The translations under genes were made by a program, and so were the position numbers. Of a stretch of 64,000 nt of DNA, positions 19,548 through 36,547 are shown one piece after another. The notes under the pieces are model-generated. The model was not told the origin of the DNA. It did not search any database and saw only the letters and a list, made by a program, of their open reading frames with translations. The DNA lies in assembly GCA_022447625.1 (NCBI GenBank), contig JAKVAX010000016.1, positions 20,766 through 84,765 of the forward strand. The letters run 5' to 3'. The stretch is from Flavobacteriales bacterium (GTDB lineage Bacteria; Bacteroidota; Bacteroidia; Flavobacteriales_D; Sanyastnellaceae). Position 1 is the first letter of the stretch. Every line of letters begins with the position of its first letter.

Positions 19548-22064
19548 CTAACGTTTGATGAAGCTTTCTGTCATCTGTGTTTGATCCTTAGTAAAGACTA
19601 TGACATATTTTCCGCTTTTCAACTGACTAACGTCGAGTTGAGTGCTATTTGTCAGACTTCCTTTAGCAAGAACGAGTTGACCACGTAGGTTGTATACTTC
19701 AAATGTGAAACCTTCATAACCAATAAGGCGAAGTTGGTCAGAAGCAGGGTTAGGATAGATGAATTGTTGTGTTAGTAACTCTTCATCAATGTTGATTGGA
19801 TCATCTTCCATCTCTGGTTCTGGCCACGTGAACAATGAGTCGATAGGGAAGGTCCAAATGCCACGGGCGAATGTTCCGGCGACGAGCGTATGCGCTGTCG
19901 TATCAATCTCAATGTCAAAGACCGGAATTGCTGGCATATTGTTTCCAATACGTACCCAGTTGTCACCACTATTCACCGTGTGGTATACACCGTAATCGGT
20001 AGCTATAAAGAGAATACTGTCGTTCAATACTTCAATGTGATTCACGGGCTGTTCTGGTAAATCTCCAGTTACATCAATCCAATTCGCCCCATTGTCATCC
20101 GTGCGGTGGAGGTGAGCTGTTTGGTCGTTGTCTTTGTAACCGCTGTGTGAGATCCACCAGCGTTCTTCTGTTTCAGGGCTGCTTTTTACATTCGTCACGT
20201 AGCGTTCTGGAAGGTCACCGGTAATAGGCTGCCAAACGAAGCTGGTTCCACCAGCTGTTCCCAGCCATACGTTGGCGTCACTTGTTCCAACCATGATTCT
20301 ACTTTCATCCGTCTGTGCTTCACCAATGGTGGAAATCGTGTGGAAGTTTGAGCCAAAGATGTTCCCATCCGTAAGGTCTTGGCTAATTGGCTCCCACACG
20401 TCGTATGGTGCGCCATTCATCCAATACGCCTTCTCCGTTCCTGTGTACAGTCGTTCGTTGTCAAAGTGACTCATGATGTACGGCATATCCCAGTTTCGGC
20501 GATCGTCTTCGTCAAGTCCGAAGGTCAGTCCGAAGATGTTGCCGAACTCACTTACGACGATATTTCCGTTCTGAGTCTCCATGTACTTGATGCCGTCAAT
20601 GACCGGATCATAAATTGTCTGGAAACCATCGCCACCGTAATCACGTGTCCATTCATCAATGGTGCTGAAATTTCCTGAAGTGGTTCCATTGTCTTGCGCC
20701 CCACCAGTATAAACACCAGGGTTATGAGGGTTCAAAGCAATGCGGTAGAACTGTGTATTCGGGATGTCATCTGCATCATCCCAGAAAATAAAGTGTGTGC
20801 CTGTTCGGTAGATTCCACCATCAGTTGCCAGCCACATAGTATCTGGGTTGAGGTAGATGAGGTCGTGCTTGTCCGCATGCACATCGTACTCCCACCATGG
20901 TGGGGTTGACAGTTCCCATGATTGACAGTTGTTGTAGGTCGTCCACATATCCACGCCGAGAATGGTGATCTCGTCTTCATCAAACGGATTTACACGGATC
21001 TTACCAAAGTACCAACCAAATCCTCCGAGCGCACCTTCCAGTCCGCCTTGGTAGAGGTTTACCCAGCTATCCCCACCATCAGTAGTTTTGTAGATTCCTT
21101 GTACTCCGTAATCAGTGCCAACGACCAAGGCCCACAGAGTATTTGGATCGTTTTGAGACATCTCTAATCCAATACGACATTGATCACCCATTGGGAGTCC
21201 GTTCACGAGTTGAACCCACGTATCACCACCATCGGTTGATCGGTGGATACGGCTTTGTTCTCCGGTGATAATCGACTCTTGGTTGTTTCGGATACGATTC
21301 CAACCTGCAGCATAAATTATATCTGGATTCTCAGGGTTCATTTTGAAATCAGTAATTCCGGCATTCTCCGCCAGGAAGAGCTGTTGTGTCCACGTCAGTC
21401 CGCCATCGGTGGTGCGGTAGAACCCTCTGTCTGGTCCTGGGGCGAAAGGTACTCCCATCGCACAAGCAAAGAGCGTTTGATCGTCTTCGGGGTGGACGCC
21501 TACTTTGGAGATGACTCCCATATCTTCCAGTCCGATATTTGTCCAAGTATCACCACCATCGAGTGAACGGTAGACACCGTTTCCAATGTGTGGCAAACCA
21601 CTTAGCTGCGGGTCACCCGTTCCCACGAGGATGTCGTCAGAGTTGTTTGGGTTGATGACGATATGCCCAATGGGCAGGAACTGAAAGTCGTCTCCAATCG
21701 GATCCCATGAATCGCCGCCATTGCTGGTTTTGAAGACTCCCCCGGTACAGCTACCAGCGTACATCGTCAATTCGTCGTTCGGGTCAATGGCGAGGGTGTT
21801 GATACGTCCGCCGATGTTTGTCGGGCCTTCCACTTGCCATGGATGATCCACGCTTTTGATATGCGATTCCGCGATAGCGCGTTCAGCCACACGTTGCATA
21901 GTCTTCACATCTGGAGTGAGGTCAGGATAGCTTCGTTGCATCATGACATGATCGTTCGGACGAGCCTTCTCTGAGATTTTATCAGGAGTGGTGTTCGATT
22001 GGTCTTGCTGAGGGGTGCATGCAACAAGAAAAATACATAATGACAGAAAAGATAGAATTCTCAT
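19548..22064 (-). CDS. Secreted lipoprotein with multiple BNR/Asp-box (sortilin/Vps10-like glycosidase-type) repeats and a T9SS type-A C-terminal sorting domain
   Basis: Start set at MRILSFLSLCIFLVAC (lipobox). It has at least 7 SxDxGxTW repeats (SNGGDSW, LDGGDTW, TDGGLTW, TDGGDTW, TDGGDSW, DDNGANW, NSGDNW). The C-terminal ~75 aa (IYPNPASDQLRL...KSGKYVIVF) match a Por/T9SS C-terminal sorting domain (CTD). Confidence 0.75.
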   Translation of the reverse strand: MRILSFLSLCIFLVACTPQQDQSNTTPDKISEKARPNDHVMMQRSYPDLTPDVKTMQRVAERAIAESHIKSVDHPWQVEGPTNIGGRINTLAIDPNDELTMYAGSCTGGVFKTSNGGDSWDPIGDDFQFLPIGHIVINPNNSDDILVGTGDPQLSGLPHIGNGVYRSLDGGDTWTNIGLEDMGVISKVGVHPEDDQTLFACAMGVPFAPGPDRGFYRTTDGGLTWTQQLFLAENAGITDFKMNPENPDIIYAAGWNRIRNNQESIITGEQSRIHRSTDGGDTWVQLVNGLPMGDQCRIGLEMSQNDPNTLWALVVGTDYGVQGIYKTTDGGDSWVNLYQGGLEGALGGFGWYFGKIRVNPFDEDEITILGVDMWTTYNNCQSWELSTPPWWEYDVHADKHDLIYLNPDTMWLATDGGIYRTGTHFIFWDDADDIPNTQFYRIALNPHNPGVYTGGAQDNGTTSGNFSTIDEWTRDYGGDGFQTIYDPVIDGIKYMETQNGNIVVSEFGNIFGLTFGLDEDDRRNWDMPYIMSHFDNERLYTGTEKAYWMNGAPYDVWEPISQDLTDGNIFGSNFHTISTIGEAQTDESRIMVGTSDANVWLGTAGGTSFVWQPITGDLPERYVTNVKSSPETEERWWISHSGYKDNDQTAHLHRTDDNGANWIDVTGDLPEQPVNHIEVLNDSILFIATDYGVYHTVNSGDNWVRIGNNMPAIPVFDIEIDTTAHTLVAGTFARGIWTFPIDSLFTWPEPEMEDDPINIDEELLTQQFIYPNPASDQLRLIGYEGFTFEVYNLRGQLVLAKGSLTNSTQLDVSQLKSGKYVIVFTKDQTQMTESFIKR

Positions 22065-22262
22065 GTGTAATGGTCTTGTGGTAAAAGTACATCTGAAAGG
22101 CCTTGGTTCCCTAAACTCTGTTGACAAAATCACGCGATTCTTCCGTTTCCAACGGGTAGTAAGAAATACAAGCATCTACTGAATTTTCGGTGAATAACTC
22201 CTGACCTGTTTCGCCTTGTCAGCCCTGAGGAAACAATACATTTGTATTGAAAATCGACAACT

Positions 22263-24888: not shown

Positions 24889-25983
24889 ATGAAAGAAGCG
24901 CGCGTATGGTCTCGTGAAGAGATCAAAGAGCTCTACGATCTTCCTTTGATCGAGCTGATCCATAAAGCATCTACTGTTCATCGGGAGCATCATGCTATTG
25001 ATGAGGTGCAGGTGTCAACCCTGCTGTCCATCAAAACTGGTGGATGTCCTGAGGATTGTGGTTACTGTCCACAAGCAGCACGCTATCATACCGGTGTTGA
25101 CAATGAAGCTATGTTGGGATTAAACCACGTGAAAGCCCAGGCCCTGCGTGCGAAATCTTCCGGATCCTCGCGACTTTGCTTAGGTGCAGCCTGGAGAAAC
25201 GTGAAAGACGATGCTGATTTCGATCACGTATTGGAAATGGTTCGTACGGTGAACGAAACCGGACTCGAAGTCTGTGCTACACTCGGAATGTTGACAGAAA
25301 AGCAAGCTCAGCGTTTGAAAGATGCCGGTTTGTACGCGTACAATCACAACCTCGATAGCTCTGAAGAGTACTACAAAGAAATCATCTCTACTCGCGGATA
25401 CGAAGATCGTTTGGAGACCATCGATAACGCTCGTAAAGCTGGGATGACGGTGTGCTCTGGAGGTATCATCGGTATGGGTGAAAGCGATGATGATCGCTGC
25501 GGAATGCTCGCAACTTACAGCGCGATGGATACGCCACCAGAGAGTGTGCCGATCAATGCACTTGTAGCCGTGGAAGGAACGCCACTTGAAGATCAAGAGA
25601 CGGTGAGCATCTGGGAAATGGTTCGAATGATTGCCGTGACGCGAATCGTACTTCCTACTTCTGTGGTTCGTCTTTCAGCAGGACGAACAGAAATGAGTGA
25701 TGAAGGTCAAGCGCTATGTTTCCTTGTGGGAGCAGGGTCGATTTTCGCTGGTGATAAGCTATTGACAACCCCAAATCCTGATGTGAACAAGGATATGGAG
25801 CTGTTTAATCTTTTGGGTATTAGACCGATGAAGCCGTACTCAAAAGGAGAGCAACCAGAAATCAATGAGGCGTACCGCAACAACGACGATCCAGAGAAAC
25901 GCATCAAGTGGAGCCGCCCAGGGCATACCATTGAGCGTAACTTGGAGAAACAAGGAAAGAAACTCGAGGAAGCGGGGGAGTAG
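24889..25983 (+). CDS. bioB: Biotin synthase (radical SAM)
   Basis: CPEDCGYCPQ radical-SAM cluster motif and BioB-family length/blocks. Confidence 0.9.
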   Translation: MKEARVWSREEIKELYDLPLIELIHKASTVHREHHAIDEVQVSTLLSIKTGGCPEDCGYCPQAARYHTGVDNEAMLGLNHVKAQALRAKSSGSSRLCLGAAWRNVKDDADFDHVLEMVRTVNETGLEVCATLGMLTEKQAQRLKDAGLYAYNHNLDSSEEYYKEIISTRGYEDRLETIDNARKAGMTVCSGGIIGMGESDDDRCGMLATYSAMDTPPESVPINALVAVEGTPLEDQETVSIWEMVRMIAVTRIVLPTSVVRLSAGRTEMSDEGQALCFLVGAGSIFAGDKLLTTPNPDVNKDMELFNLLGIRPMKPYSKGEQPEINEAYRNNDDPEKRIKWSRPGHTIERNLEKQGKKLEEAGE

Positions 25984-26030: not shown

Positions 26031-29000
26031 TCAAGAAATCAGATGTTCCAATTGTTCAAGTACTGGAACGAGTTGATTGCCGCCGGCTCCTTTCAATCGT
26101 TGATTCCGGTTGAATACTTCTAAGATCCCTGCACGACGTTGTTCTTCTTCCGCGGTGAGTGTGAAGGCCATGCTTTTGAACTTTAGGAAGTTCCATTCGG
26201 TGCCTGTTGTCAGCGTTTGAGACTCGTTTTCATAGTGCGTCATGATCACGTTCTCCAGTTCATCGTCGTTCATGAATGGCAGCACTTTCTCTACCATTCG
26301 GTTCATGTTACGATACGAACCTTGCATCTTAAACGGAGGCTCGGTGCGGAATTCATCTGCCTGACTCGCAGAGTAGATGTATTCCATATTCACCTTCAGC
26401 ACGACATCGCGAATGCGGAACATCTTTTTCAAGGTTGTCACGTACTCTTCGATCTCTTCTGGAGTGTGCTGAGCTTCAAACTCATCGGTCATTTCACCGT
26501 TCTCCGCGAGGCGAATCATCTTGCGAACATCTCCCAAGCTCTTCGTTGCTAGACGATTCATAATCGAATTGCTCGTCAACGAGTTTTCGATGTAGCTGTC
26601 TTTGAAAGCGTTGGAGTTTGAGCCAATGATATCACCTAGGTTGTAGATGTCGGCACGGTTCGCCAACATGTCTGGAATCTTGAACTTCTCACCGCTCTCG
26701 GTGTAAGGGTTTCCAGCCATTACCACAGCCACTTTACGGCCTTTCAAGTCGTAGGTCTTTGAACGGCCTCTGAATACCCCTTCAATTTTACGCTGTGCAT
26801 CACAAAGCGAAATGAATTTCTGAAGGAACTCAGGGTTACAGTGCTGAATGTCATCTAGGTAGAGCATGACGTTGTCGCCCATTTCCAATGCGAAGTTGAG
26901 TTTGTTTAACTCGTCACGCGAAGCGGAATTGGTCGCTTCTGCAGGATCAATCGATGTGATTCGGTGCCCAATAGATGGACCATTGATTTTCACGAACACC
27001 AACCCAAGCTGTGAAGCGATGTACTCCATCAAGGTCGTCTTACCATATCCCGGAGGGGAGATGAGAAGCAAGAGTCCCATCAGGTCTGTTCGCTTGTTGT
27101 CACCAGCTGTTCCAATCTGCTTGGCGAGGTTGTCTCCAATGAGTGGGAGGTAACTCTCGTCAATCAATCTGTTTCGGACAAACGAAGACATCACACGTGG
27201 CTTGAATTCATCAATTTTCAGTGCATGGCGTTCGTCATCGAGCTTCTCTCGTTTTAATTGCTGAAGCGCATTAAATGCAGGCACTTGATCGCTCATAAAG
27301 TGATGAAGCTTCTGCTCGAAGGTGGCCAGACTCATTCCTGATGAATAAGAAGAGCTAACCGGGTGATTCCCTTTCAATTTAACACCCTCTGAAAGGGTAG
27401 GAACCTTGCTTTGCTCCCAGGAAATCTCTCGTGAGCTTGACTTAGCGAAGACCACGAAAGCGGCTTCAAAGAGCAAGTGGGTGTCTTCCCCTTCTCCAAA
27501 GGCTAGTAGCCAGTCAAAAGTCTTATTGAAACCATCAATCGGTCGTTCCTTGTACGACTGGATGAGGGTCTCAAATTGACCGAGACTGCGCTTCCCTTTC
27601 AGGTATTGCTGGAATGATTCTGCGAAGGAGGCTCCTTCTTTACTCACTTCCATCCCCGTGTTTTCCGCGTTAGCGAACCAAAGCGCCTGTTCAATACGCA
27701 TAGCAAGCTGCGAGTCATCAACGGATTCAATCTGACTCAAATCAATGGTTCCTTCGAGAAACTCTCCAATGGCTTCAGTTGCTGCCGAGGTGATTTGATG
27801 GTCAATCGGTGGATTAGTGAAGAATTTACGAGCGTTCCTGAAGGAGGTCGCTTCTTGGGTGTATCGAGCGCGTAGTTCTTTCGAAAAGGCAAAGTGCCAA
27901 GAGAGTTGTCCAAGGACGCGTTCGAGGCCTGTGAAACGAAGGCTCTTGACGCGGTGGTCAAGATCAATCATGGCCAGGGTAATGCGCAAAGCGTCGTGAT
28001 CATGAACCCCTTTGATGTATCCTTCTCCCGGACGTTGACGCATCATTTCATGAATCACCGTCATCAGCTCTTCTTGAGGAACAGCCAGCCATTCACTCAG
28101 CACGGCATTACGTTCGCGCAGTTCATTGATCAGCTGATACGCAAGGAATTCAGCGCGGTAAACGTCTGAATTTTCGCTCACCAAACTTTGGTCAAAGAGC
28201 GAAGTATACTGTTGCAATTCTTCACCAGCAGGGTGGAAGAAGTTCGTTCCAGTCAAGTGGTAATAGAGCGTGTCTTCACGGGGAATCAATGTCAAGTCTA
28301 GGTTCTGACGGTTCACGTTGAACGCGTGCTTTCCAAACATGATGGCATCGCTTCCATTCGCAAAGAGTTCTTTCTTGTCACGCAGCTGACGCAGTGCATC
28401 TTCCTTCGTGCGCTTGAGCTTACTTTGAAGCTCATCAGCCTTCACTGAGTCACCCAATTCCATGAGATCTTCAATGACTTGACGCAGCTTTTCTACCATG
28501 ACATCTCCCGCATAAAATGCATGGATGTCGCTGTTGTTTTCAATCTGTTCAACGCGTGAAACAATGCTATTCACGATTCGGTTTCCAGATCGCTGCAGTG
28601 CGGCTGTCTTCTTATTGATCTCTTCTAGTAAGACCAAACGGCGTGACTCAAATGCCTGTTGAATGTTGTTTCGCTTCTCGTCAATCTCCTCTCGGAAATC
28701 TTCAAAGTCTGAGAAACGCGCATCCAACTCTTCAACCTGAATCAACAGTTTGTTCAGGTAGTCGTTGCAGGCTTCAGGCGTTTCAGCAAGCTCAACATAG
28801 CTGGAAAGCGTCTGCTCAATCAGCATTAACTGAGCCTTGAATACGGCTTCGCCTTCCGTTCGTTGATACTGCTTACGCTTTTTCGTGATCTCACTAATCA
28901 GCGAGTTGAATTTCGCGTAAGTCGCCGTAATCTGTTCCAGGATCGCCCCTGTTTTGGTGGCGTCTTCAATCTTCAGATTGGATACCACATCAATCAATAG

Positions 29001-30899
29001 CTCAAGTTGGTGTGCGAATCCGCGCGTCTCTTTTTCAAGGGCGTTGATCTCGACCACTTTTTCTACGGCGTTCAACGCTTTTTCAATCCGCGTGACCTCT
29101 TTTTCATAGGGTTCCAGGGCATCATCACGAAGCAAGAATTCCACGGTAGTGTCAGAGACTTGCTGCTGTACTTCTTGAACCTCCTTCTCACTGCCTTCAA
29201 TACGTTCGAGGTCGGCGTAGCGGAGATCCTTGAGCGTGATCACTTCACCTTTCAGTGATCTTAATTCATTGAGCAATTCGATGTACGGACGAATCTCATT
29301 TTCACGTGCATATTTCGCGCGTTTAATGACTTCGCTAGCGCGGAATAACGTGTCTTCCGTTTGCTCGCCAGTGGCCTTACGAATGCGAATTACCTTCTCG
29401 AATTCGTCAATGGCTTGCTGTGCCGTATCTCGAATATTACCAAGAGGCTCTAAGAGATCAGGAATCTCGTTGTTGTCGAGCCAATGGTAAGAGTCAATGA
29501 TGTCTGTAGATCGCTTTACAATGTCGAGGTACAAGTTGGCGTAGGAGTCTTCCTTGCGTGAGATCTTGATCAGTTCCGTGGCTTCTGCCATGGCCTTCAC
29601 GACCTCCTTATTCCCGATTTTGTAGAGGTAGTTTTGTTGGTTCTCCTTCTCGATAATCACGTTAGGAGAGTGGAATGGGGTAGACCACAACTGGATGGCG
29701 TGGTGTTTCTTTGCCTCTTCATCCGTCTTGAACACGGCATTCTCTCCCGACTCAAACAAGGAGAATCCATTGCAAATGATCGGTGTCTGAACGGTTTGTT
29801 CAATGATGTTGTACGACAACAAGATGTATGTACCCTTGATCTTGTTGTAGAAAACGTAGAGGTAATCTTCACCGTTAGGCGCGTCTATACGACGTTCGAA
29901 GGCCATGTCTTGCAGCCCATGGTCGAACGATTTGTACTCACCAGTTTGGTTGTAGTAGCCCCGCGCATAGATCAGTCCTTGATCTTCTGGAAGCAAGACA
30001 CAGCTATCTTCCAGGGCGTCGATGCGTACGGCTTCTTGAATTTTTTCATTGAAGACGATGTAGCGGAACTGCTCTTCACGGTAAGGACGAATTTTTAGGA
30101 TCGTCACCACCCCAACTTGCGCGAAGTATACTTCAGCGTCATCAAGCGTTTGGTCTACCTCGTTCACCGGTTCAGAGAAGATCCCTTTGCCCGTGTCAGT
30201 GTTGTCTTCAACCTTGATGGTCAGGTCTCCACCGATCGTTTCAACGAATACTTTGTCATTGATACTGATGTGCGGGTGAACACCTTTGCGATGCATGTCA
30301 CGCGTTGCCTGTTCCCAGCGGAATGCGTGTTGTTCAGGCAAGACGAATTCATGTTCGCTACGTGAATTCTCATACTTCAGTTGATCTCCATTGATGCGCC
30401 ATTTGAAGACCTTGATGTCGTCGACATTCTTTCCAATTTGAAAGGCGGCATAAAGGAAAGGGCCGAGCTCAAGGAACTTCAAGAACCGCGCATCTCGATA
30501 GTATTTATAGAGATTCTGAAAGTCAGCTTCGAACTGTTCATCTCGGAGCACACCCGCGGTGTTTTCACTGAAGGTATGTGATGCCGGATCATAATCGAAG
30601 CAAGCGAAAACATCGGTCGATGAAATGCTGCCGCGCAATCCGATATGCACGTTGTACCCGAAGATGAATCGTTCGGTACCGATGGGAGCCAGGTCACGGG
30701 CTACACAGTTGTTGGCTGTGGTAATCCGTTCAGTGGTGATCAACTCTCGTGCGATGGTCCCGAAGGTCTTACGGCGTTCTTCATTGAGTGCCGCAAGCCG
30801 TTGATTCAGGTAGTCACTTCGTTCGAGGAGTCGATTCCTAAGGATCTCATAGGTACCTTGTTCGAGCTGTATGTCTTTTTGTTCTTGGTTTTCAGCCAT
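26031..30899 (-). CDS. Giant (1622 aa) uncharacterised protein with central coiled-coil region and a MoxR/AAA_5-like AAA+ ATPase domain near the C-terminus
   Basis: Walker A GYGKTT, Walker B/sensor block VMLYLDDIQHCNPEFLQ (MoxR-like DEINRAxP) and VAVVMAGNPY (ATQNP-like). Residues ~460-900 have heptad-rich coiled-coil character. It is the last gene of the flotillin operon. Confidence 0.8.
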   Translation of the reverse strand: MAENQEQKDIQLEQGTYEILRNRLLERSDYLNQRLAALNEERRKTFGTIARELITTERITTANNCVARDLAPIGTERFIFGYNVHIGLRGSISSTDVFACFDYDPASHTFSENTAGVLRDEQFEADFQNLYKYYRDARFLKFLELGPFLYAAFQIGKNVDDIKVFKWRINGDQLKYENSRSEHEFVLPEQHAFRWEQATRDMHRKGVHPHISINDKVFVETIGGDLTIKVEDNTDTGKGIFSEPVNEVDQTLDDAEVYFAQVGVVTILKIRPYREEQFRYIVFNEKIQEAVRIDALEDSCVLLPEDQGLIYARGYYNQTGEYKSFDHGLQDMAFERRIDAPNGEDYLYVFYNKIKGTYILLSYNIIEQTVQTPIICNGFSLFESGENAVFKTDEEAKKHHAIQLWSTPFHSPNVIIEKENQQNYLYKIGNKEVVKAMAEATELIKISRKEDSYANLYLDIVKRSTDIIDSYHWLDNNEIPDLLEPLGNIRDTAQQAIDEFEKVIRIRKATGEQTEDTLFRASEVIKRAKYARENEIRPYIELLNELRSLKGEVITLKDLRYADLERIEGSEKEVQEVQQQVSDTTVEFLLRDDALEPYEKEVTRIEKALNAVEKVVEINALEKETRGFAHQLELLIDVVSNLKIEDATKTGAILEQITATYAKFNSLISEITKKRKQYQRTEGEAVFKAQLMLIEQTLSSYVELAETPEACNDYLNKLLIQVEELDARFSDFEDFREEIDEKRNNIQQAFESRRLVLLEEINKKTAALQRSGNRIVNSIVSRVEQIENNSDIHAFYAGDVMVEKLRQVIEDLMELGDSVKADELQSKLKRTKEDALRQLRDKKELFANGSDAIMFGKHAFNVNRQNLDLTLIPREDTLYYHLTGTNFFHPAGEELQQYTSLFDQSLVSENSDVYRAEFLAYQLINELRERNAVLSEWLAVPQEELMTVIHEMMRQRPGEGYIKGVHDHDALRITLAMIDLDHRVKSLRFTGLERVLGQLSWHFAFSKELRARYTQEATSFRNARKFFTNPPIDHQITSAATEAIGEFLEGTIDLSQIESVDDSQLAMRIEQALWFANAENTGMEVSKEGASFAESFQQYLKGKRSLGQFETLIQSYKERPIDGFNKTFDWLLAFGEGEDTHLLFEAAFVVFAKSSSREISWEQSKVPTLSEGVKLKGNHPVSSSYSSGMSLATFEQKLHHFMSDQVPAFNALQQLKREKLDDERHALKIDEFKPRVMSSFVRNRLIDESYLPLIGDNLAKQIGTAGDNKRTDLMGLLLLISPPGYGKTTLMEYIASQLGLVFVKINGPSIGHRITSIDPAEATNSASRDELNKLNFALEMGDNVMLYLDDIQHCNPEFLQKFISLCDAQRKIEGVFRGRSKTYDLKGRKVAVVMAGNPYTESGEKFKIPDMLANRADIYNLGDIIGSNSNAFKDSYIENSLTSNSIMNRLATKSLGDVRKMIRLAENGEMTDEFEAQHTPEEIEEYVTTLKKMFRIRDVVLKVNMEYIYSASQADEFRTEPPFKMQGSYRNMNRMVEKVLPFMNDDELENVIMTHYENESQTLTTGTEWNFLKFKSMAFTLTAEEEQRRAGILEVFNRNQRLKGAGGNQLVPVLEQLEHLIS

Positions 30900-30917
30900 T
30901 GAGAGGTAGGGACAAGA

Positions 30918-33083
30918 TTAAAGGTCTCCTAACGATTTGTTTGCCAAACCAAGGTCATTGGCTCTTCCAAGAAGGGCTTCTAGGAGTGACTGCTTATTAG
31001 GATCCGATTCGCGCATGATCAGTTGTGCGATCAAGGCAGCAACACTCAGGTCGCGGATTCCTTCAGCAGAGATTCCTCCGGCAATAGCCATTTCTTTCAA
31101 GTTGGCGATGAAGCCATCTTCATCCCCAGAACCGAGCAGTTGACGGCGTACATCACTCAAGACATTCGAATTGTCTACCAGTCGATCTGTGGCTTTACCG
31201 TTCGAGATAGCTCCAACGATCTTATCGAAGAATACGTTTTCACCACCCACGATATCAATCTTCGCATTTTCAAGCGCTGTACCCAATACTTCAGCTTGCG
31301 CTTCGGCAATTTCTGCTTGGATATTGATGCCTGCCAATTCCACTTCTTTGTCTTTTTCGAGACGTAGTTTGAATTCTTCGTGTTCTTTCCCGACACCATC
31401 GAGCTTCTTCATGGCTTCGGCTTTCGCCTCGATACCTTGAGCGTCGATTGTGTACTTCTCACCAGCAACCAGTGCTTCTGCGAGTCCTTTCTCTTTATCG
31501 GCCTCGGCGATTTTGTGGATCACTTCAGCTTCCGCGAATCCGCGTTTGCGTTCTACTTCTGCAGAGGCTTCACCAATCTTAAGGTCAGCTTCTGCCTGCG
31601 CATTTGATTTCGCTTCAATTCCTTTTGCTTCAGCGAGCGCTTGAGCCTCTAGAACAGATGCTTCAGCCTCACCTTGCTTCTCACGTGCGTCAGCCTTAGC
31701 CTCCATAACTTGAGCTTCCGCAATACCTTGAGCTGCGTGCTTCGCGGCATCTGCTTCAGCCAGTGTTTTGATCGCTTCAGCGCGTTGCGTAGCACTGGCT
31801 TGCTCAGCCTCTGCTTCGATGAGTAATTGACGTGCTTTGTGTTCTGCTGCTTGTTTCTGTGCTTCCGCAGATTTAATCGCTTTCACTAGTTCAGCTTCCG
31901 CCTCTTCTTCAGATTTGGTCACTGCTACTTTCTTCATACGATCTGCTTCAGCGAATGCACGTGTATCCTTGATACGCTCTTCTTCGTCAACCACACTCTT
32001 CTGGATGGCCACGCGTTCACGAATCACTTCTTGAATGTTCTTGCGTTCAATTTCAATCGATTTCTCTTTATCAATCTGTGCAAGTGTCACTACGCGTTCG
32101 CGTTCGTTGACTTCAAGTAGACGGTCTTTCTCTACGCGTTCTGTTTCAACCGCGTTGGTACGTTCCTTATTCTTAGCAGCAACTACAATCTGGCGTAGCT
32201 TGTTTTCTTCTGCTACTTGTAGCTCTTCTTCGGTTTGAATTCGGGCCTTTTCAGCCTTCAAACGCTCTTCTTCTTGAACCTTCAAGATCTCTGCGCCTTC
32301 GCGGGCCTTGATCGATTCTATTTCACGATTCTGGCGTTCTTCTGTTTCAGCGAGCTGACGTTCCATTTCTAGAATCGCCTCTCGTGCTTCAACGTCTTGT
32401 TGCTTGATCGTTTTCTCTTTGTCACGAAGAATGTGGTTCGCCTTAATCTTCTGGTTCGCTGTGAGCTCGCGAATCTTCTTGATACCCTCTGAATCGAGAA
32501 TGTTGTTCTCATCAAGAGCTGAAAGCGGTGTCTGCTCAAGGTAGTCAATCGCACAGTCATCGAGGATGTATCCGTTCAAATCAGTACCGATGAGGTTTAT
32601 GATTTCCTTACGGAACTCATCACGCTGGTTGTAGAGGTCTACGAAGTTGAACTTCTTACCAACGGTTTTCAGGGCTTCCGAGAACTTGGCGTCAAAGAGT
32701 TGTTCGAGGGCTTCTTTACTCGAAGCGCGAACACAACCCACCGACTGAGCTACCTTTTTTACGTCTTCGATTTTTTCGTTCACACGAACGAAGAAAGTCA
32801 CCTTGATGTCTGCACGCATGTTGTCTTGGCAGATCAACCCTTCGTTTCCATGGCGGTGGATCATAATGGTCTTTAGAGAGATGTCCATTACTTCCAGTCG
32901 TTGGAACACCGGAATAACAGTGAGGCCATTGAAAGAAACTTTTATCCCACCTATACCGGTGCGGACAAGTGCTTGCCCTTGTTTTGTCTTTTTGTAGAGT
33001 CTGCTTAAGAAGAATAACAGGCCTATGACAAAGAATATGATACTACCAATCACTGTGAGTGTGGAAGTTTGTATGAAATCCAT
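30918..33083 (-). CDS. Flotillin-like SPFH/band-7 protein (YqiK-like) with long E/A/K/Q-rich coiled-coil
   Basis: N-terminal TM helix, SPFH domain blocks (VRTGIGG...VIPVFQRLEVMDISLKTI...ADIKVTFFVRV), then ~400 aa of EA-repeat coiled coil. Confidence 0.85.
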   Translation of the reverse strand: MDFIQTSTLTVIGSIIFFVIGLLFFLSRLYKKTKQGQALVRTGIGGIKVSFNGLTVIPVFQRLEVMDISLKTIMIHRHGNEGLICQDNMRADIKVTFFVRVNEKIEDVKKVAQSVGCVRASSKEALEQLFDAKFSEALKTVGKKFNFVDLYNQRDEFRKEIINLIGTDLNGYILDDCAIDYLEQTPLSALDENNILDSEGIKKIRELTANQKIKANHILRDKEKTIKQQDVEAREAILEMERQLAETEERQNREIESIKAREGAEILKVQEEERLKAEKARIQTEEELQVAEENKLRQIVVAAKNKERTNAVETERVEKDRLLEVNERERVVTLAQIDKEKSIEIERKNIQEVIRERVAIQKSVVDEEERIKDTRAFAEADRMKKVAVTKSEEEAEAELVKAIKSAEAQKQAAEHKARQLLIEAEAEQASATQRAEAIKTLAEADAAKHAAQGIAEAQVMEAKADAREKQGEAEASVLEAQALAEAKGIEAKSNAQAEADLKIGEASAEVERKRGFAEAEVIHKIAEADKEKGLAEALVAGEKYTIDAQGIEAKAEAMKKLDGVGKEHEEFKLRLEKDKEVELAGINIQAEIAEAQAEVLGTALENAKIDIVGGENVFFDKIVGAISNGKATDRLVDNSNVLSDVRRQLLGSGDEDGFIANLKEMAIAGGISAEGIRDLSVAALIAQLIMRESDPNKQSLLEALLGRANDLGLANKSLGDL

Positions 33084-33102
33084 GTTTAAATAATAGGTTT
33101 AG

Positions 33103-33738
33103 TTAATCAAAATAGGGTTCGACCAGATAGTCATCGGTGCCGTCAACTTCTTGGATGAAGAGGACCTGGTCACCTTTTTTAGCTTCTACACCTTTTCTGG
33201 TCACAATGTAGAGCATGAGATAGCTGCCAGCAGATTCAACTTCCGCTTGACCGCGGGAATCATGTGTGGCGCTGATAATCACCGTTCCAACCTTTCCGAG
33301 AATGACTTTTTCTTTCGTGCCTTCTTCGAATTTTGCGAATAGACCAACAAAGGGCCAAGTAGCAAACTTGGCAATGAATAGTCCAATTATTAGGGCGGGG
33401 AAGAATGTGATTAATCCGAATAAGAATGAGTCGATTCCCAATAGATGATTGGCATTGTTGTGGATGAACCACAGCGGTAGAGACAAAAAACTCAACCACA
33501 CCATGAACGGTATCTTACCAAGGTTGAAAAAGACTAAGACGTTATTCAACCACATGAGGCCAGAAGTGTCAACATCAGGGTCGATGTCAACTTCCCCGTC
33601 AATGTCAATATCAAAGTCTAAGAAGTCCATATCAATAGCTCCAAGCATCACCGTGATCCAATAAACCATGATGAAACAGAGAATACCAGTAGATAGGGCA
33701 TTCGCAGGACTAAATATCGTATTGAAGAATTCGATCAT
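33103..33738 (-). CDS. NfeD-like (YqiJ/YuaF-type) membrane protein with C-terminal OB-fold
   Basis: 4-5 TM helices followed by GKVGTVIISATHDSRGQAEV...KGDQVLFIQEVDG, which is an OB-fold of the NfeD short type. It lies immediately upstream of the flotillin gene, the canonical pairing. Confidence 0.6.
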   Translation of the reverse strand: MIEFFNTIFSPANALSTGILCFIMVYWITVMLGAIDMDFLDFDIDIDGEVDIDPDVDTSGLMWLNNVLVFFNLGKIPFMVWLSFLSLPLWFIHNNANHLLGIDSFLFGLITFFPALIIGLFIAKFATWPFVGLFAKFEEGTKEKVILGKVGTVIISATHDSRGQAEVESAGSYLMLYIVTRKGVEAKKGDQVLFIQEVDGTDDYLVEPYFD

Positions 33739-33745
33739 TGTTTAT

Positions 33746-34480
33746 TTATGCTTCGTTGGTACTATCACCGTCACCGCCTTCAAGTCCCATTTTCTTTTTA
33801 AGTGCTTCCAGTGCTTCAGAAGCTTGAGCTTCAGACGCACCTTCAAGAGCCTTGTCGATTTCATCATCGATAGAGCGTGACTCTTTTGCGAGTTCACCAT
33901 AGCTTTCAGCTAGGGCTTCTTCTTGAGCTACCTTTTCTTTCATTCGCTCCAGCATTGATACGGTGCTCGATGAATCGATATCGGCCATTTGTTTATTGAT
34001 GTTCTTTGTAGCTGAAGAGACCTTCACGCGTGCTTTGAGCGTTTTAAGTTCGTTCTCGTAATGAGAGATCTGGCTCTTTAGGCGCTTGATGTTTGAATCC
34101 ATCGTGTTCGCGTGGTTCTCAAACTTCTCTTGGTCTTGTTTTGCACGTGCCACTTGAGCTACGCACTCTTCTTTCTTTACCAAGGCGTTCGTTGCGAGAC
34201 GATCAGCTTCTGCAGGATCGAGCTCACCTTTCTGTGCTTGTTGAAGCAGCATCATGGCTTTGTTCTCGTAGTCTTTCGCTTTTTCTGTTTCGCTTTCAAC
34301 ATCGTTACGAGCGCGAATAGCTAGCGCTTTTACTTCGGCCAAGGCCTGAACGGCTTTGTCGAGGTCTTCTTTCAGGTCGCGGATCCCTTGTTCTGTCATT
34401 TTGATCGGATCCTCCAGCTTATCAACCGCTGAGTGGGCTTCCGCTTTTCCGATCTTAAATAGGCGACGAAAAATATTCAT
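33746..34480 (-). CDS. PspA/IM30 (Vipp1/ESCRT-III-like) family protein
   Basis: The N-terminal MNIFRRLFKIGKAEAHSAVDKLEDPIKMTEQGIRDLKEDL matches the PspA amphipathic helix a0 and the start of the coiled coil. The protein is all-helical and 244 aa. Confidence 0.85.
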   Translation of the reverse strand: MNIFRRLFKIGKAEAHSAVDKLEDPIKMTEQGIRDLKEDLDKAVQALAEVKALAIRARNDVESETEKAKDYENKAMMLLQQAQKGELDPAEADRLATNALVKKEECVAQVARAKQDQEKFENHANTMDSNIKRLKSQISHYENELKTLKARVKVSSATKNINKQMADIDSSSTVSMLERMKEKVAQEEALAESYGELAKESRSIDDEIDKALEGASEAQASEALEALKKKMGLEGGDGDSTNEA

Positions 34481-34491
34481 GGGTACGGGTT

Positions 34492-34911
34492 TTAATGTTT
34501 TGCGTATTCAATGAGTTGGTCAGAGTACTCTGTGAGGAGTAAGGCAAGCGAGTTTAAAGTACTTTCAAGTTCGTTCAAGTCTAGGGTAGAGACTTGAAGG
34601 GTGTCTCTGAAGATGACTTTCTCACCTGTGCTATCCAGGCAGAATGCTCCGTGTACGATATCACGGTTCTTCATGAGTAGATCTTTTAAGATGTACTCAT
34701 TCGGATCTTTTAGTTCGAACAAGAATTGCTCGATGATGAGAATAGGATCTGCTACACACAGCACTACATTCTTCACACCGTAGTTCTCGTTTTCGATCAT
34801 GAATATCCCAGATGAACGGTCTTCCGTCACGATGGAATAGTTTAACTCCGAGATGTACTCTTTGATCTTGTCGAAATGGTCTGACATTGAGGTAAATGTG
34901 TTTTGATTCAA
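34492..34911 (-). CDS. YbjN-like (putative sensory-transduction/chaperone-like) domain protein
   Basis: 139 aa with the same layout as YbjN-domain proteins that frequently accompany PspA. Assignment is by recall of the fold signature only. Confidence 0.45.
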   Translation of the reverse strand: MNQNTFTSMSDHFDKIKEYISELNYSIVTEDRSSGIFMIENENYGVKNVVLCVADPILIIEQFLFELKDPNEYILKDLLMKNRDIVHGAFCLDSTGEKVIFRDTLQVSTLDLNELESTLNSLALLLTEYSDQLIEYAKH

Positions 34912-35034
34912 CAGTTATTGGATTGAAATTTCGTAAATTAATCTTTGCATCCATTAGTATGTGTGATGAAAATATTAGATTTACATCACTAAAGTACTAA
35001 AAAAAATGTCATTGACAAAATAATTAGCATACTT

Positions 35035-35817
35035 ATGTCGCACATTGGTAGGAATATAAAGAAGATTAGATCGGTAAAAGGACTGAGTCAGGAGCAGTTT
35101 GCTAATATTATTAATGTGAAACGAGCTTCCATCGGAGCTTATGAAGAAGGAAGGGCTGAGCCAAAGATTCCCGCAATCATGGAGATAGCGGATCACTTCG
35201 GGATCTCAATTGATGATCTTTTAACGAAGGAATTGACAGTAAACGACCTGTATCGTTTCGATATTTTCCGTGATGATCTGCAGCAATTTGGGGCTAATAA
35301 CCTGCTTCCTTCTCGTGATGTGACGGATCTATTGCAAATTCCATTCGTTTCTATCGGCGAGAGGGAAGGTCTATTGAAAGCTGTGGATGTTCCGCGTTTC
35401 TTAGGTTCATTGCCTGTGCTCTGTCTGCCACTATCTAAAGGGCGTTCATACATAGCTCTGGAGTTCAGCTCAGATGATGCGCCTGGGGTCTTAGGTCAGG
35501 GTGAAATCGCTATCGCGTCGTCTATTGATTTGGATGATGTGCTCAATCACGAAGGGCGTGCGGCTTTCCTTATTCAGACGGAAAAGGATATTGGCTGTTT
35601 TCGCGTGCTTCGACACCGCATTCGTGAGTGGAGATTGAATTCGTATGCGCAGAATCAGGTGGTTCGGATCGTAGATCAGAAACTCATCAAGCAAACATGG
35701 AGGGTTGAATCTATAATTACTAAAAACGTTAGTAGACACCTTCATAGTGGATTGGATTCGTATGATATGGAGTCGCGTTTGAAAGCACTAGAAGCGGCTT
35801 TAGCTAAAAAAAGTTGA
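35035..35817 (+). CDS. XRE-family helix-turn-helix transcriptional regulator with ~190-aa uncharacterised C-terminal domain
   Basis: The N-terminal IKKIRSVKGLSQEQFANIINVKRASIGAYEEGRAEPKIPAIMEIADHFGISIDDLL is a Cro/CI-type HTH. No S24 Ser-Lys dyad was recognised in the C-terminal part. Confidence 0.75.
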   Translation: MSHIGRNIKKIRSVKGLSQEQFANIINVKRASIGAYEEGRAEPKIPAIMEIADHFGISIDDLLTKELTVNDLYRFDIFRDDLQQFGANNLLPSRDVTDLLQIPFVSIGEREGLLKAVDVPRFLGSLPVLCLPLSKGRSYIALEFSSDDAPGVLGQGEIAIASSIDLDDVLNHEGRAAFLIQTEKDIGCFRVLRHRIREWRLNSYAQNQVVRIVDQKLIKQTWRVESIITKNVSRHLHSGLDSYDMESRLKALEAALAKKS

Positions 35818-35818
35818 G

Positions 35819-36547
35819 TTATATTAATTTTCGGTCATTGCTATGAAGTAGGGGGATCCCCATTCCGATCATCGCACCAGAAGCATAGCCCACAAGTACA
35901 TCGGTGTACCAGTGTTTCCCAGCGCGTATTCTGAGATAACCAACCACAGCTGGAACAGCAATCGCTGTAGCCCATCCTAAGGTTCTGATCGTTTGTGATC
36001 CGCTGTATTGTTGAATCAATGAAGCGGCAAGAAATGAAAACGTGGATGCGGTACTGGTATGTCCGCTGTAGAAGCTAATGGTCGCTTCGCGATCAGTTAG
36101 AATGTCTCTTGGGGTACTTCCCTCAAATACATAAGGTCTTGGACGATGCGCTAGTCCTTTAGTGAACGTCATCAGAAAGTAGTTCGCCATGGCCGCTTGC
36201 AGGTACAAATGCATTCCATTGACAGCTTGGTCAGTATTCATGGCTGGGATGGCAGTAGCTGGCAGTGCCAAACTTGTTAGAACAAAAAAGTCTGAGATCT
36301 TATCAGCCTTGTAGTTGATGGGGTGGATTGACCATCGATCGAAGCGATTGAATTCTCGTTCTCTCAGCTTCGCTATTTCCTCCATTGTTAATGGGGTCAC
36401 CCTGCCTTGCGTGAGCTGACCACTGAGTGCTAAGGGCATTCCAATCAAGGTCATACTATTCCGAGTTCCCTTGCTGTATCGGGTGAACTGAGCTTCCGCG
36501 CTAGCGAAAGAGAGTAGAAGGCTAAGTACAAGAAGAAATCGGCACAT
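35819..36547 (-). CDS. PAP2-superfamily phosphatase (membrane)
   Basis: Three PAP2 motifs: KGLAHRPRP (KX6RP), YSGHTS (PSGH) and SRIRAGKHWYTDVLVGY (SRX5HX3D). Confidence 0.85.
   Translation of the reverse strand: MCRFLLVLSLLLSFASAEAQFTRYSKGTRNSMTLIGMPLALSGQLTQGRVTPLTMEEIAKLREREFNRFDRWSIHPINYKADKISDFFVLTSLALPATAIPAMNTDQAVNGMHLYLQAAMANYFLMTFTKGLAHRPRPYVFEGSTPRDILTDREATISFYSGHTSTASTFSFLAASLIQQYSGSQTIRTLGWATAIAVPAVVGYLRIRAGKHWYTDVLVGYASGAMIGMGIPLLHSNDRKLI

Follow-up and report, generated by a model that had tools for sequence, protein, structure and literature searches.

Operon layout and gene products

The subject of this analysis is a tight gene cluster of a Flavobacteriales bacterium (assembly GCA_022447625.1, contig JAKVAX010000016.1), which lies in a window of 64,000 nucleotides; the window is the whole stretch of DNA that was analysed, and all positions refer to it. 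The open reading frame (ORF) listing shows five co-directional ORFs on the minus strand, spanning 26031..34911, and the gaps between them, counted from the CesT gene to the ATPase gene, are 11, 7, 19 and 18 bp. The preliminary description of this DNA had correctly recognized a tight minus-strand cluster, but its spacing of 8–20 bp has to be replaced by these values. A sixth conserved gene, encoding a divergently oriented regulator (35035..35817, plus strand), is situated just beyond the interval given in that description. As judged from the sequence, the locus is another member of an operon class already described by Ravi et al. (mSystems 2024, PMC11237479), and it does not represent a new architecture. 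The genes and features of the locus are the following:

35035..35817, plus strand: XRE-HTH regulator, 260 aa (Pfam HTH_3, E=5e-11), with a weakly LexA/S24-like C-terminal domain
34888..35034, no strand: divergent intergenic region of 147 bp, AT-rich, presumed promoter/operator (sequence reading)
34492..34887, minus strand: CesT/Tir-like chaperone, 131 aa (Pfam CesT_Tir_1); the mechanical ORF has 139 aa and reaches a TTG at 34911
33746..34480, minus strand: PspA/IM30 protein (ESCRT-III-like) of the YjfJ type, 244 aa (Pfam PspA_IM30; BLASTP to YjfJ)
33103..33738, minus strand: YqiJ/DUF1449-family membrane protein, 211 aa (hhalign to E. coli YqiJ)
30918..33083, minus strand: YqiK-type flotillin, 721 aa (hhalign to E. 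coli YqiK)
26031..30899, minus strand: giant soluble ATPase, 1622 aa (Pfam DUF3686, DUF7902, AAA, AAA_5)

All five gene identities proposed earlier were upheld, either by Pfam or, for the flotillin and NfeD-like calls, by hhalign comparisons of family profiles, which were needed because these two window proteins have no significant Pfam match of their own. The 721-aa protein gave nothing in Pfam or NCBIfam, and the Pfam search remained empty even at E up to 10. A phmmer search of the protein against the Protein Data Bank (PDB) returned only a marginal match to the coiled coil of QmcA. The family profile matched QmcA in the PDB with E=0.002 and E. coli YqiK with an hhalign probability of 100% (E=2.7e-41, 32% identity, 400 columns), and a homologue that is 55% identical to the window protein (locus L046) passes Pfam Band_7 at 44.2 bits. 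The hydropathy profile shows a single hydrophobic segment at residues 2–31, and the protein consists of an N-terminal membrane anchor, an SPFH domain, a long coiled-coil region rich in E, A and K, and a C-terminal domain that is conserved. The homologues are named "flotillin family protein" or "SPFH domain-containing protein" by PGAP. By its homology and its N-terminal anchor, the protein is assigned to the YqiK-type flotillin/SPFH proteins.

The gene located 19 bp upstream of the flotillin gene encodes a protein that matched Pfam YqiJ_N weakly (E=0.006) and gave no Pfam NfeD match even at E up to 10. Its family profile aligned with E. coli YqiJ at an hhalign probability of 95.5% (E=1.4e-8), and the Hymenobacter homologue carries the PGAP name "DUF1449 family protein". 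Three transmembrane segments are predicted from hydrophobic stretches at residues 12–40, 67–85 and 99–135, and the alignment suggests a strand-rich C-terminal part of ~70 residues. These family features identify the 211-aa protein as a YqiJ/DUF1449 protein, the NfeD-like partner of flotillin. It should be noted that an acidic DxDxD loop lies between hydrophobic segments 1 and 2 (residues 36–62, 33553..33633), with D or E at 11 of its 27 positions. The acidic character of this loop is kept across phyla while its length varies, and the loop could be a cation-binding or charge-sensing element.

The first gene of the cluster had been called YbjN-like, and a match to Pfam YbjN is indeed real (24.7 bits, cut-off 22), yet PF22550 CesT_Tir_1 is matched far more strongly (E=7.8e-51, 171.9 bits against a cut-off of 27, residues 9–139). 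This CesT-clan match places the product among the CesT/Tir-type proteins as a putative chaperone. Its similarity to E. coli YjfI is marginal (E=0.011). As all 22 CesT homologues in the alignment begin at Met9 of the window protein, the likely start of the gene is the ATG at 34887, giving 131 aa, and not the TTG at 34911.

The product of the second gene is, by its match to PF04012 PspA_IM30 (E=9e-43, 146.9 bits against a gathering cut-off of 33.9, residues 2–230), a PspA/IM30 protein of the ESCRT-III superfamily. It falls far below the equivalog model of E. coli PspA, TIGR02977 (54 bits against a cut-off of 242.95), so it is not a PspA of the classical E. coli type, and no match to PspB, PspC or PspF was given by any ORF scanned from 19.5 to 39.6 kb of the window. 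It aligns over its full length with E. coli YjfJ (BLASTP E=4e-9), including a C-terminal motif that follows a variable linker and reads EALEALKKKMGL in the window protein (residues ~223–234, 33779..33814). The pattern (D/E)-L-x-x-L-K-x-(K/Q)-(L/M)-G was found in all 25 operon-linked PspA proteins aligned. We considered this helix as a docking site for the ATPase, but the idea lost ground, because E. coli YjfJ, too, shows a recognizable form of the motif, and no such ATPase is encoded next to it. For the same reason, the motif is more likely to be connected with the CesT/YjfI-type partner than with the ATPase.

A homologue of the regulator was found divergently upstream in 22 of the 22 loci bearing CesT–PspA, and the Hymenobacter homologue is named "LexA family transcriptional regulator" by PGAP. 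The similarity of the C-terminal domain to LexA is weak (E 0.2–0.8). In a 12.9-bit alignment with the E. coli LexA sequence, LexA Lys156 aligns to an Arg, and the position of Ser119 has no conserved Ser. Since the equivalents of these two residues are not kept, the domain appears, tentatively, to be a degenerate, non-cleaving sensor or dimerisation domain.

Architecture of the giant ATPase

Pfam assigns residues 31–472 of the 1622-aa protein to DUF3686 (E=2e-179), residues 593–677 to DUF7902 (E=7e-21) and residues 1277–1400 to AAA/AAA_5. The motifs quoted in the preliminary description (GYGKTT, LYLDDIQHCNPEF and VVMAGNPY) are present in the translation. The protein contains no hydrophobic segment, its maximum Kyte–Doolittle score being 1.03. 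It is 100% identical to an NCBI entry from a Flavobacteriales metagenome-assembled genome (MAG), and the next relative is ~52% identical. The DUF3686 propeller family is compact, with 679 representatives at 50% identity and full-length members of 1600–1900 aa. For the structural analysis, two AlphaFold models were built from 51-sequence alignments, one of residues 1–1000 (pLDDT 80.9) and the other of residues 841–1622 (pLDDT 85.9). The following parts are predicted:

29682..30746, minus strand: beta-propeller, residues ~52–406 (part of DUF3686), after a helix at residues 14–46 (AlphaFold, about 27 strands)
28368..29630, minus strand: helical stalk/coiled coil, residues ~424–844 (~420 residues), including DUF7902 (AlphaFold, almost all long helices)
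27117..28346, minus strand: small beta domain (residues 852–890), all-alpha domain (915–1154) and long connecting helices (1191–1261) (AlphaFold)
26520..27107, minus strand: AAA+ module, residues ~1265–1460 (motifs and AlphaFold)

The two regions that the preliminary description had marked for domain parsing could be parsed in this way: the N-terminal 450 residues hold the propeller, and residues 900–1270 hold the all-alpha domain and the long helices. The Foldseek matches of the propeller region were WD40 and other propeller proteins, namely Elp1, Vps11, clathrin heavy chain and prolyl oligopeptidase, with E values of about 1e-5 to 1e-4. No specific fold match was obtained for residues 852–1261. 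A "protocoatomer-like" architecture, suggested by Foldseek matches to clathrin, Vps11, IFT-A and nucleoporins, was rejected, as the TM-scores normalised to query length were not higher than 0.15 and the helical part of the protein is a coiled coil and not an alpha-solenoid.

The AAA+ core begins at about residue 1276 and is followed by a lid and C-terminal helices in the model. It contains the Walker A motif GYGKTT, a Walker B motif with LDD (D1349, D1350), the sensor-1 residue N1397, R1415 and a beta-hairpin preceding sensor 1, and these catalytic motif residues are invariant in the 51 homologues. The closest folds were those of the MoxR chaperones CbbQ and NorQ, so that the earlier "MoxR-type" call is borne out at the level of the fold, that of the MoxR/dynein group. 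The absence of a VWA partner was likewise confirmed, as none of the five proteins of the operon and none of the eight flanking ones matched VWA. The Walker B motif has the form hhhhDD (LYLDD, with the two Asp codons at 26850..26855) in all 51 homologues, the usual form being Asp-Glu.

Conservation of the gene neighbourhood

A genome scan limited to one genome per species gave 80 loci, which belong to Bacteroidota, Planctomycetota, Verrucomicrobiota, Desulfobacterota, Clostridia, Kiritimatiellota and Omnitrophota, and the ORFs of these loci were searched with profiles made from the window proteins. Sixty-seven of them, each having at least 3 kb of upstream DNA, were informative. In 64 of the 67, the upstream gene next to the ATPase gene is that of the flotillin, which answers in its favour the synteny question on which the preliminary description had staked its proposal, and a YqiJ-like gene is also there in 62. 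The complete order CesT–PspA–YqiJ–flotillin–ATPase was found in 22–23 loci, all from Bacteroidota, whose proteins are 43–52% identical to those of the window. Because the same order is retained in so many genomes at this level of protein identity, the arrangement is, on the sequence comparison, far beyond chance. Meanwhile, 36 loci contain the bare YqiJ–flotillin–ATPase triad with no PspA gene within 10 kb. A tblastn search of plasmid records, some chromosomes included, added Proteus mirabilis, Streptomyces, Deinococcus and others, and the triad was confirmed in every tblastn locus examined, including those of Proteus, Streptomyces, Deinococcus and plasmid pQBR103. In total, the triad spans at least 10 phyla.

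These distributions indicate that the invariant evolutionary core consists of the ATPase, the flotillin and YqiJ, and that CesT–PspA and the regulator are a Bacteroidota-specific addition. The coupling of PspA to an AAA+ motor, emphasized in the preliminary description, is therefore present at this locus, but it is a derived Bacteroidota add-on and not the core feature. In a neighbour-joining tree of 65 ATPases, the branches follow phylum boundaries, and the PspA-linked ATPases are limited to Bacteroidota lineages outside the Saprospiraceae branch. This largely phylum-wise inheritance argues for a resident cellular role of the family and not for mobile defence. Some members are carried on large plasmids (Hymenobacter, pQBR103, Streptomyces and Deinococcus).

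On the Pseudomonas fluorescens SBW25 plasmid pQBR103 (84.4–97.6 kb; locus L083), a yjfIJKLMC-like PspA/polyamine cluster of the E. coli type stands head-to-tail with the YqiJ–SPFH–ATPase triad. Here YjfI–PspA precedes the triad, a rhomboid protease gene is added, and the gene arrangement points to a second, independent junction of the triad with a PspA dyad. Loci L021, L034 and L062 have more than 7 kb of upstream DNA, and neither a flotillin nor a YqiJ gene adjoins the ATPase gene in them.

Small variable genes accompany the ATPase gene at many loci, lying between flotillin and ATPase in 27 of 80 and directly downstream in 33 of 80 (examples are L003, L004, L012, L018, L027, L047 and L049); the window has none of them. 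A search for further conserved accessory genes at these two positions found only small, variable families, mostly singletons: DUF4178, DUF3592, DUF6896, a DMP19-like protein, an esterase, an AbiEii toxin and a J-domain protein. As the inserts vary in this way, the junctions beside the ATPase gene tolerate insertions. The closest relative with a complete genome among those examined encodes two further proteins from 7 bp past the ATPase gene, a J-domain (DnaJ) protein of 126 aa and another protein of 232 aa (L081, 14933..16011; L082, 10020..11098), and no counterpart is present in the window.

The published operon class agrees with the window in gene content, order, orientation and the divergent regulator. 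Ravi et al. described CesT/Tir–PspA operons with a three-transmembrane YqiJ/YuaF protein, a Band-7/flotillin protein and a beta-propeller–coiled-coil–AAA+ protein, and their Table S3 lists the same six-gene layout, including "<-cHTH+Protease", for Dokdonia donghaensis (ANH61663.1), which belongs to the same phylum and class as the window genome (PMC11237479). The window shows no difference in architecture, but it lacks the adjacent PadR/PspC/Toastrack genes listed for Dokdonia. The same authors pointed out that shortened operons, from which PspA is missing, have a wider distribution, and proposed, in a purely computational description, ATP-dependent membrane remodelling (PMC11237479). Our analysis adds to this description that the constant partner of the ATPase is the flotillin/YqiJ pair and not PspA, that the AAA+ module is of the MoxR/dynein-like kind and its Walker B is invariably Asp-Asp, that the protease-like domain of the regulator appears to lack the catalytic Ser/Lys dyad, and that inheritance runs largely by phylum.

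Several known systems resemble parts of the operon. Escherichia coli YqiJ–YqiK and Bacillus subtilis YuaF–FloT are homologous pairs of NfeD-like and flotillin genes, but in E. coli neither an ATPase gene nor a PspA or CesT gene adjoins the pair, and YqiK has 553 aa against 721 aa of the window flotillin. In B. subtilis pspA–ydjGHI (samGHI), PspA is encoded together with an SPFH protein, YdjI/SamI, which recruits PspA to the membrane (PMC8581546; bioRxiv 10.64898/2026.02.06.704340); that operon has the membrane anchors YdjG/YdjH and contains neither an AAA+ ATPase nor a CesT-like chaperone. The yjfIJKLMC cluster of E. coli similarly has a chaperone-like protein followed by a YjfJ-type PspA. However, YjfI belongs to DUF2170 of the CesT superfamily and not to CesT_Tir_1, the cluster carries polyamine genes that are missing from the window, and it includes no ATPase.

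Proposed function of the operon and alternative explanations

It is established for other systems that SPFH proteins and their NfeD-type partners assemble into large cages attached to the membrane, and that PspA/IM30 proteins form polymers on membranes that are damaged. Rings of MoxR-type AAA+ proteins are known to remodel complexes of proteins, and type III chaperones hold their clients. Against this background, we give somewhat better than even chances to the reading that the operon encodes an envelope-maintenance module, in which the ATPase would be an ATP-driven remodeller of a flotillin/NfeD-like membrane platform, joined in Bacteroidota to PspA-based membrane protection. The predicted topology fits it, as the ATPase and PspA have no hydrophobic segment, whereas the flotillin has one and the YqiJ-like protein three, and the phylum-wise tree of the ATPase supports a resident cellular function. 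The "energy-driven membrane-remodelling or repair machine" of the preliminary description was thus largely right in substance, although the idea is not new and its emphasis shifts from PspA to flotillin.

Within this remodelling scheme, the flotillin and YqiJ would assemble into a large SPFH dome or cage at the inner membrane, on its cytoplasmic side, as in the solved SPFH/NfeD complexes; such cages of QmcA–YbbJ, HflK/C and flotillin are cited in two reports (PMC13086221, PMC13000311). The ATPase would oligomerise through its AAA+ ring, and its propeller-tipped arms would reach the flotillin/YqiJ assembly. Spending ATP, it would put the cage together, open it or take it apart, or would work on the proteins inside. 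In Bacteroidota, the flotillin platform would recruit PspA to the stressed membrane, the CesT-like protein would keep PspA unpolymerised until delivery, much as type III chaperones do with their clients, and the ATPase may recycle PspA polymers too. The regulator would hold the operon off until a stress signal arrives. That the flotillin itself is the substrate of the ATPase is possible but rather doubtful. Equally tentative is a bolder form of the proposal, in which the giant protein would be the first dedicated ATP-driven remodeller of flotillin/SPFH cages: a MoxR/dynein-like ring of six subunits, each bearing a propeller-tipped arm. This machine would open, build or take apart YqiK–YqiJ assemblies and be tied to chaperone-held PspA in Bacteroidota. 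If true, it would be a functional counterpart of ESCRT-III/Vps4 in bacteria that arose from an unrelated AAA+ lineage.

Several points speak against the remodeller proposal. Any contact of the ATPase with flotillin, YqiJ or PspA is deduced only from gene linkage, and three informative loci (L021, L034 and L062) carry the ATPase gene with no adjacent flotillin. The Asp-Asp Walker B may indicate a slow ATPase or a nucleotide-dependent switch, and not a motor. Co-transcription of the five genes is assumed from their layout and may not hold; a scan for sigma-70-type promoters and terminators, with a tool that does not cover Bacteroidota promoters, gave counts not above those of shuffled sequence and was uninformative. 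Finally, no experimental study of the giant ATPase or of any other operon member was found in the literature searched. To this extent the system can still be called uncharacterised, as it was in the preliminary description, in spite of its layout having been described by Ravi et al. (PMC11237479).

The questions touched here are by what means bacteria construct and dismantle their flotillin assemblies, and how they control PspA polymers without a Vps4-like ATPase, which, according to a 2025 review, appears to be absent from bacteria (PMC7619361). As an AAA+ ATPase adjoins flotillin in at least 10 phyla and PspA in Bacteroidota, this operon class offers a concrete candidate for the energy-consuming component that is missing.

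The same linkage could be read with PspA at its centre, the ATPase being an analogue of Vps4 that disassembles or recycles the ESCRT-III-like PspA polymer while flotillin and YqiJ serve only as a membrane address. PspA lies inside the same tight operon in the 22–23 Bacteroidota loci, YjfI–PspA precedes the triad on pQBR103, and the conserved C-terminal helix of PspA behind a variable linker has the format of the MIM motifs of ESCRT-III. An SPFH protein can also be encoded together with ESCRT-III and an AAA+ ATPase in archaeal ESCRT loci (PMC10936438), and triad-only operons may, as suggested by Ravi et al., act with a PspA encoded elsewhere (PMC11237479). However, most loci, and all non-Bacteroidota loci of the genome scan, have no PspA within 10 kb, and the C-terminal PspA motif is shared by E. 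coli YjfJ, near which no such ATPase is encoded. The window ATPase also lacks the features by which Vps4 is recognized, an N-terminal MIT domain and a classical AAA domain of the meiotic clade: it is MoxR/dynein-like, five times larger than Vps4 and linked primarily to flotillin. We consider this explanation unlikely.

A different role for the flotillin cage is assumed if the ATPase is a MoxR-type maturation or quality-control chaperone for third-party membrane proteins corralled by the cage, as in HflK/C–FtsH or RavA–ViaA. Its closest folds, CbbQ and NorQ, agree with this, a beta-propeller is a typical client- or adaptor-binding module, and the variable small genes beside the ATPase gene, including the J-domain protein of L081/L082, might be seen in the same light. 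The enclosure of an AAA+ enzyme by an SPFH cage at the inner membrane has a precedent in HflK/C–FtsH (PMC13220708), but FtsH is a protease anchored in the membrane and a member of the classical AAA clade, whereas the ATPase of the window comes from a different clade, is soluble and contains no protease domain. Compared with CbbQ, NorQ and RavA, it has ~1260 extra N-terminal residues and the DD form of Walker B. Neither a VWA/MIDAS partner nor a conserved candidate client gene was found at the loci, and the only invariant neighbours are flotillin and YqiJ, all of which makes this chaperone role decidedly improbable.

The preliminary description had also left room for a phage response, in which the large NTPase would sense infection and act on the membrane through flotillin and PspA as an abortive-infection system. 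The plasmid-borne members, the AbiEii and DMP19-like genes inserted in a few loci and the historical name of PspA, "phage shock", could be cited for it. No support was obtained in the searches: PADLOC-DB v2 gave only mad8 (E=1.7e-4, confined to the AAA domain) and coiled-coil matches for PspA, no relatives were present in 2.9 million viral contigs (IMG/VR), and Pfam detected no nuclease, TIR, pore or other effector domain. The ATPase tree, moreover, follows phyla and is not patchy, and the window neighbours are housekeeping genes. An anti-phage function is therefore very improbable.

A DNA-repair ATPase, as the NCBI product name of the identical MAG entry and the Pfam description of DUF3686 would have it, is hardly credible, since these generic labels, which the preliminary description had rightly expected to exist, are backed only by weak RuvB matches limited to the Walker A region (RuvB equivalogs at ~20 bits against cut-offs of 282–299, P-loop only), while Pfam finds no helicase, nuclease or DNA-binding domain, as had been noted earlier, the invariant neighbours are membrane proteins, and no paper mentioning DUF3686 was found in the literature searched. 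Flotillin-associated rhodopsins were considered as another literature lead and proved unrelated.

Flanking genes and further observations

The cluster ends with the giant gene, because its downstream neighbour, a biotin synthase-like gene with radical SAM/BATS domains (24889..25983, plus strand), converges on it. Further neighbours in the window encode an aminotransferase, a phosphoglucomutase and a PAP2 phosphatase, and the base composition is unremarkable. An Rfam search over the whole window gave no match.

In the divergent intergenic region, a 6-bp inverted repeat, GTGATG-N17-CATCAC (34957..34991), was spotted by eye. Related loci do not share it, and it could have arisen by chance. A conserved inverted-repeat operator was sought in 23 regulator–operon intergenic regions, with no shared motif found among them.

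The PAP2 phosphatase gene (35819..36547, minus strand) adjoins the divergent regulator and encodes a lipid-modifying enzyme. This neighbour is not conserved, giving two weak matches in the 80 loci, and a PLDc_2 (phospholipase D-like) gene occupies the equivalent place in L081 (3965..4657). On the other side of the operon, the minus-strand gene at 19548..22175 agrees with an origin in Bacteroidota, as its product of 875 aa carries Sortilin/VPS10-type repeats and, at the C-terminus, a type IX secretion sorting domain.

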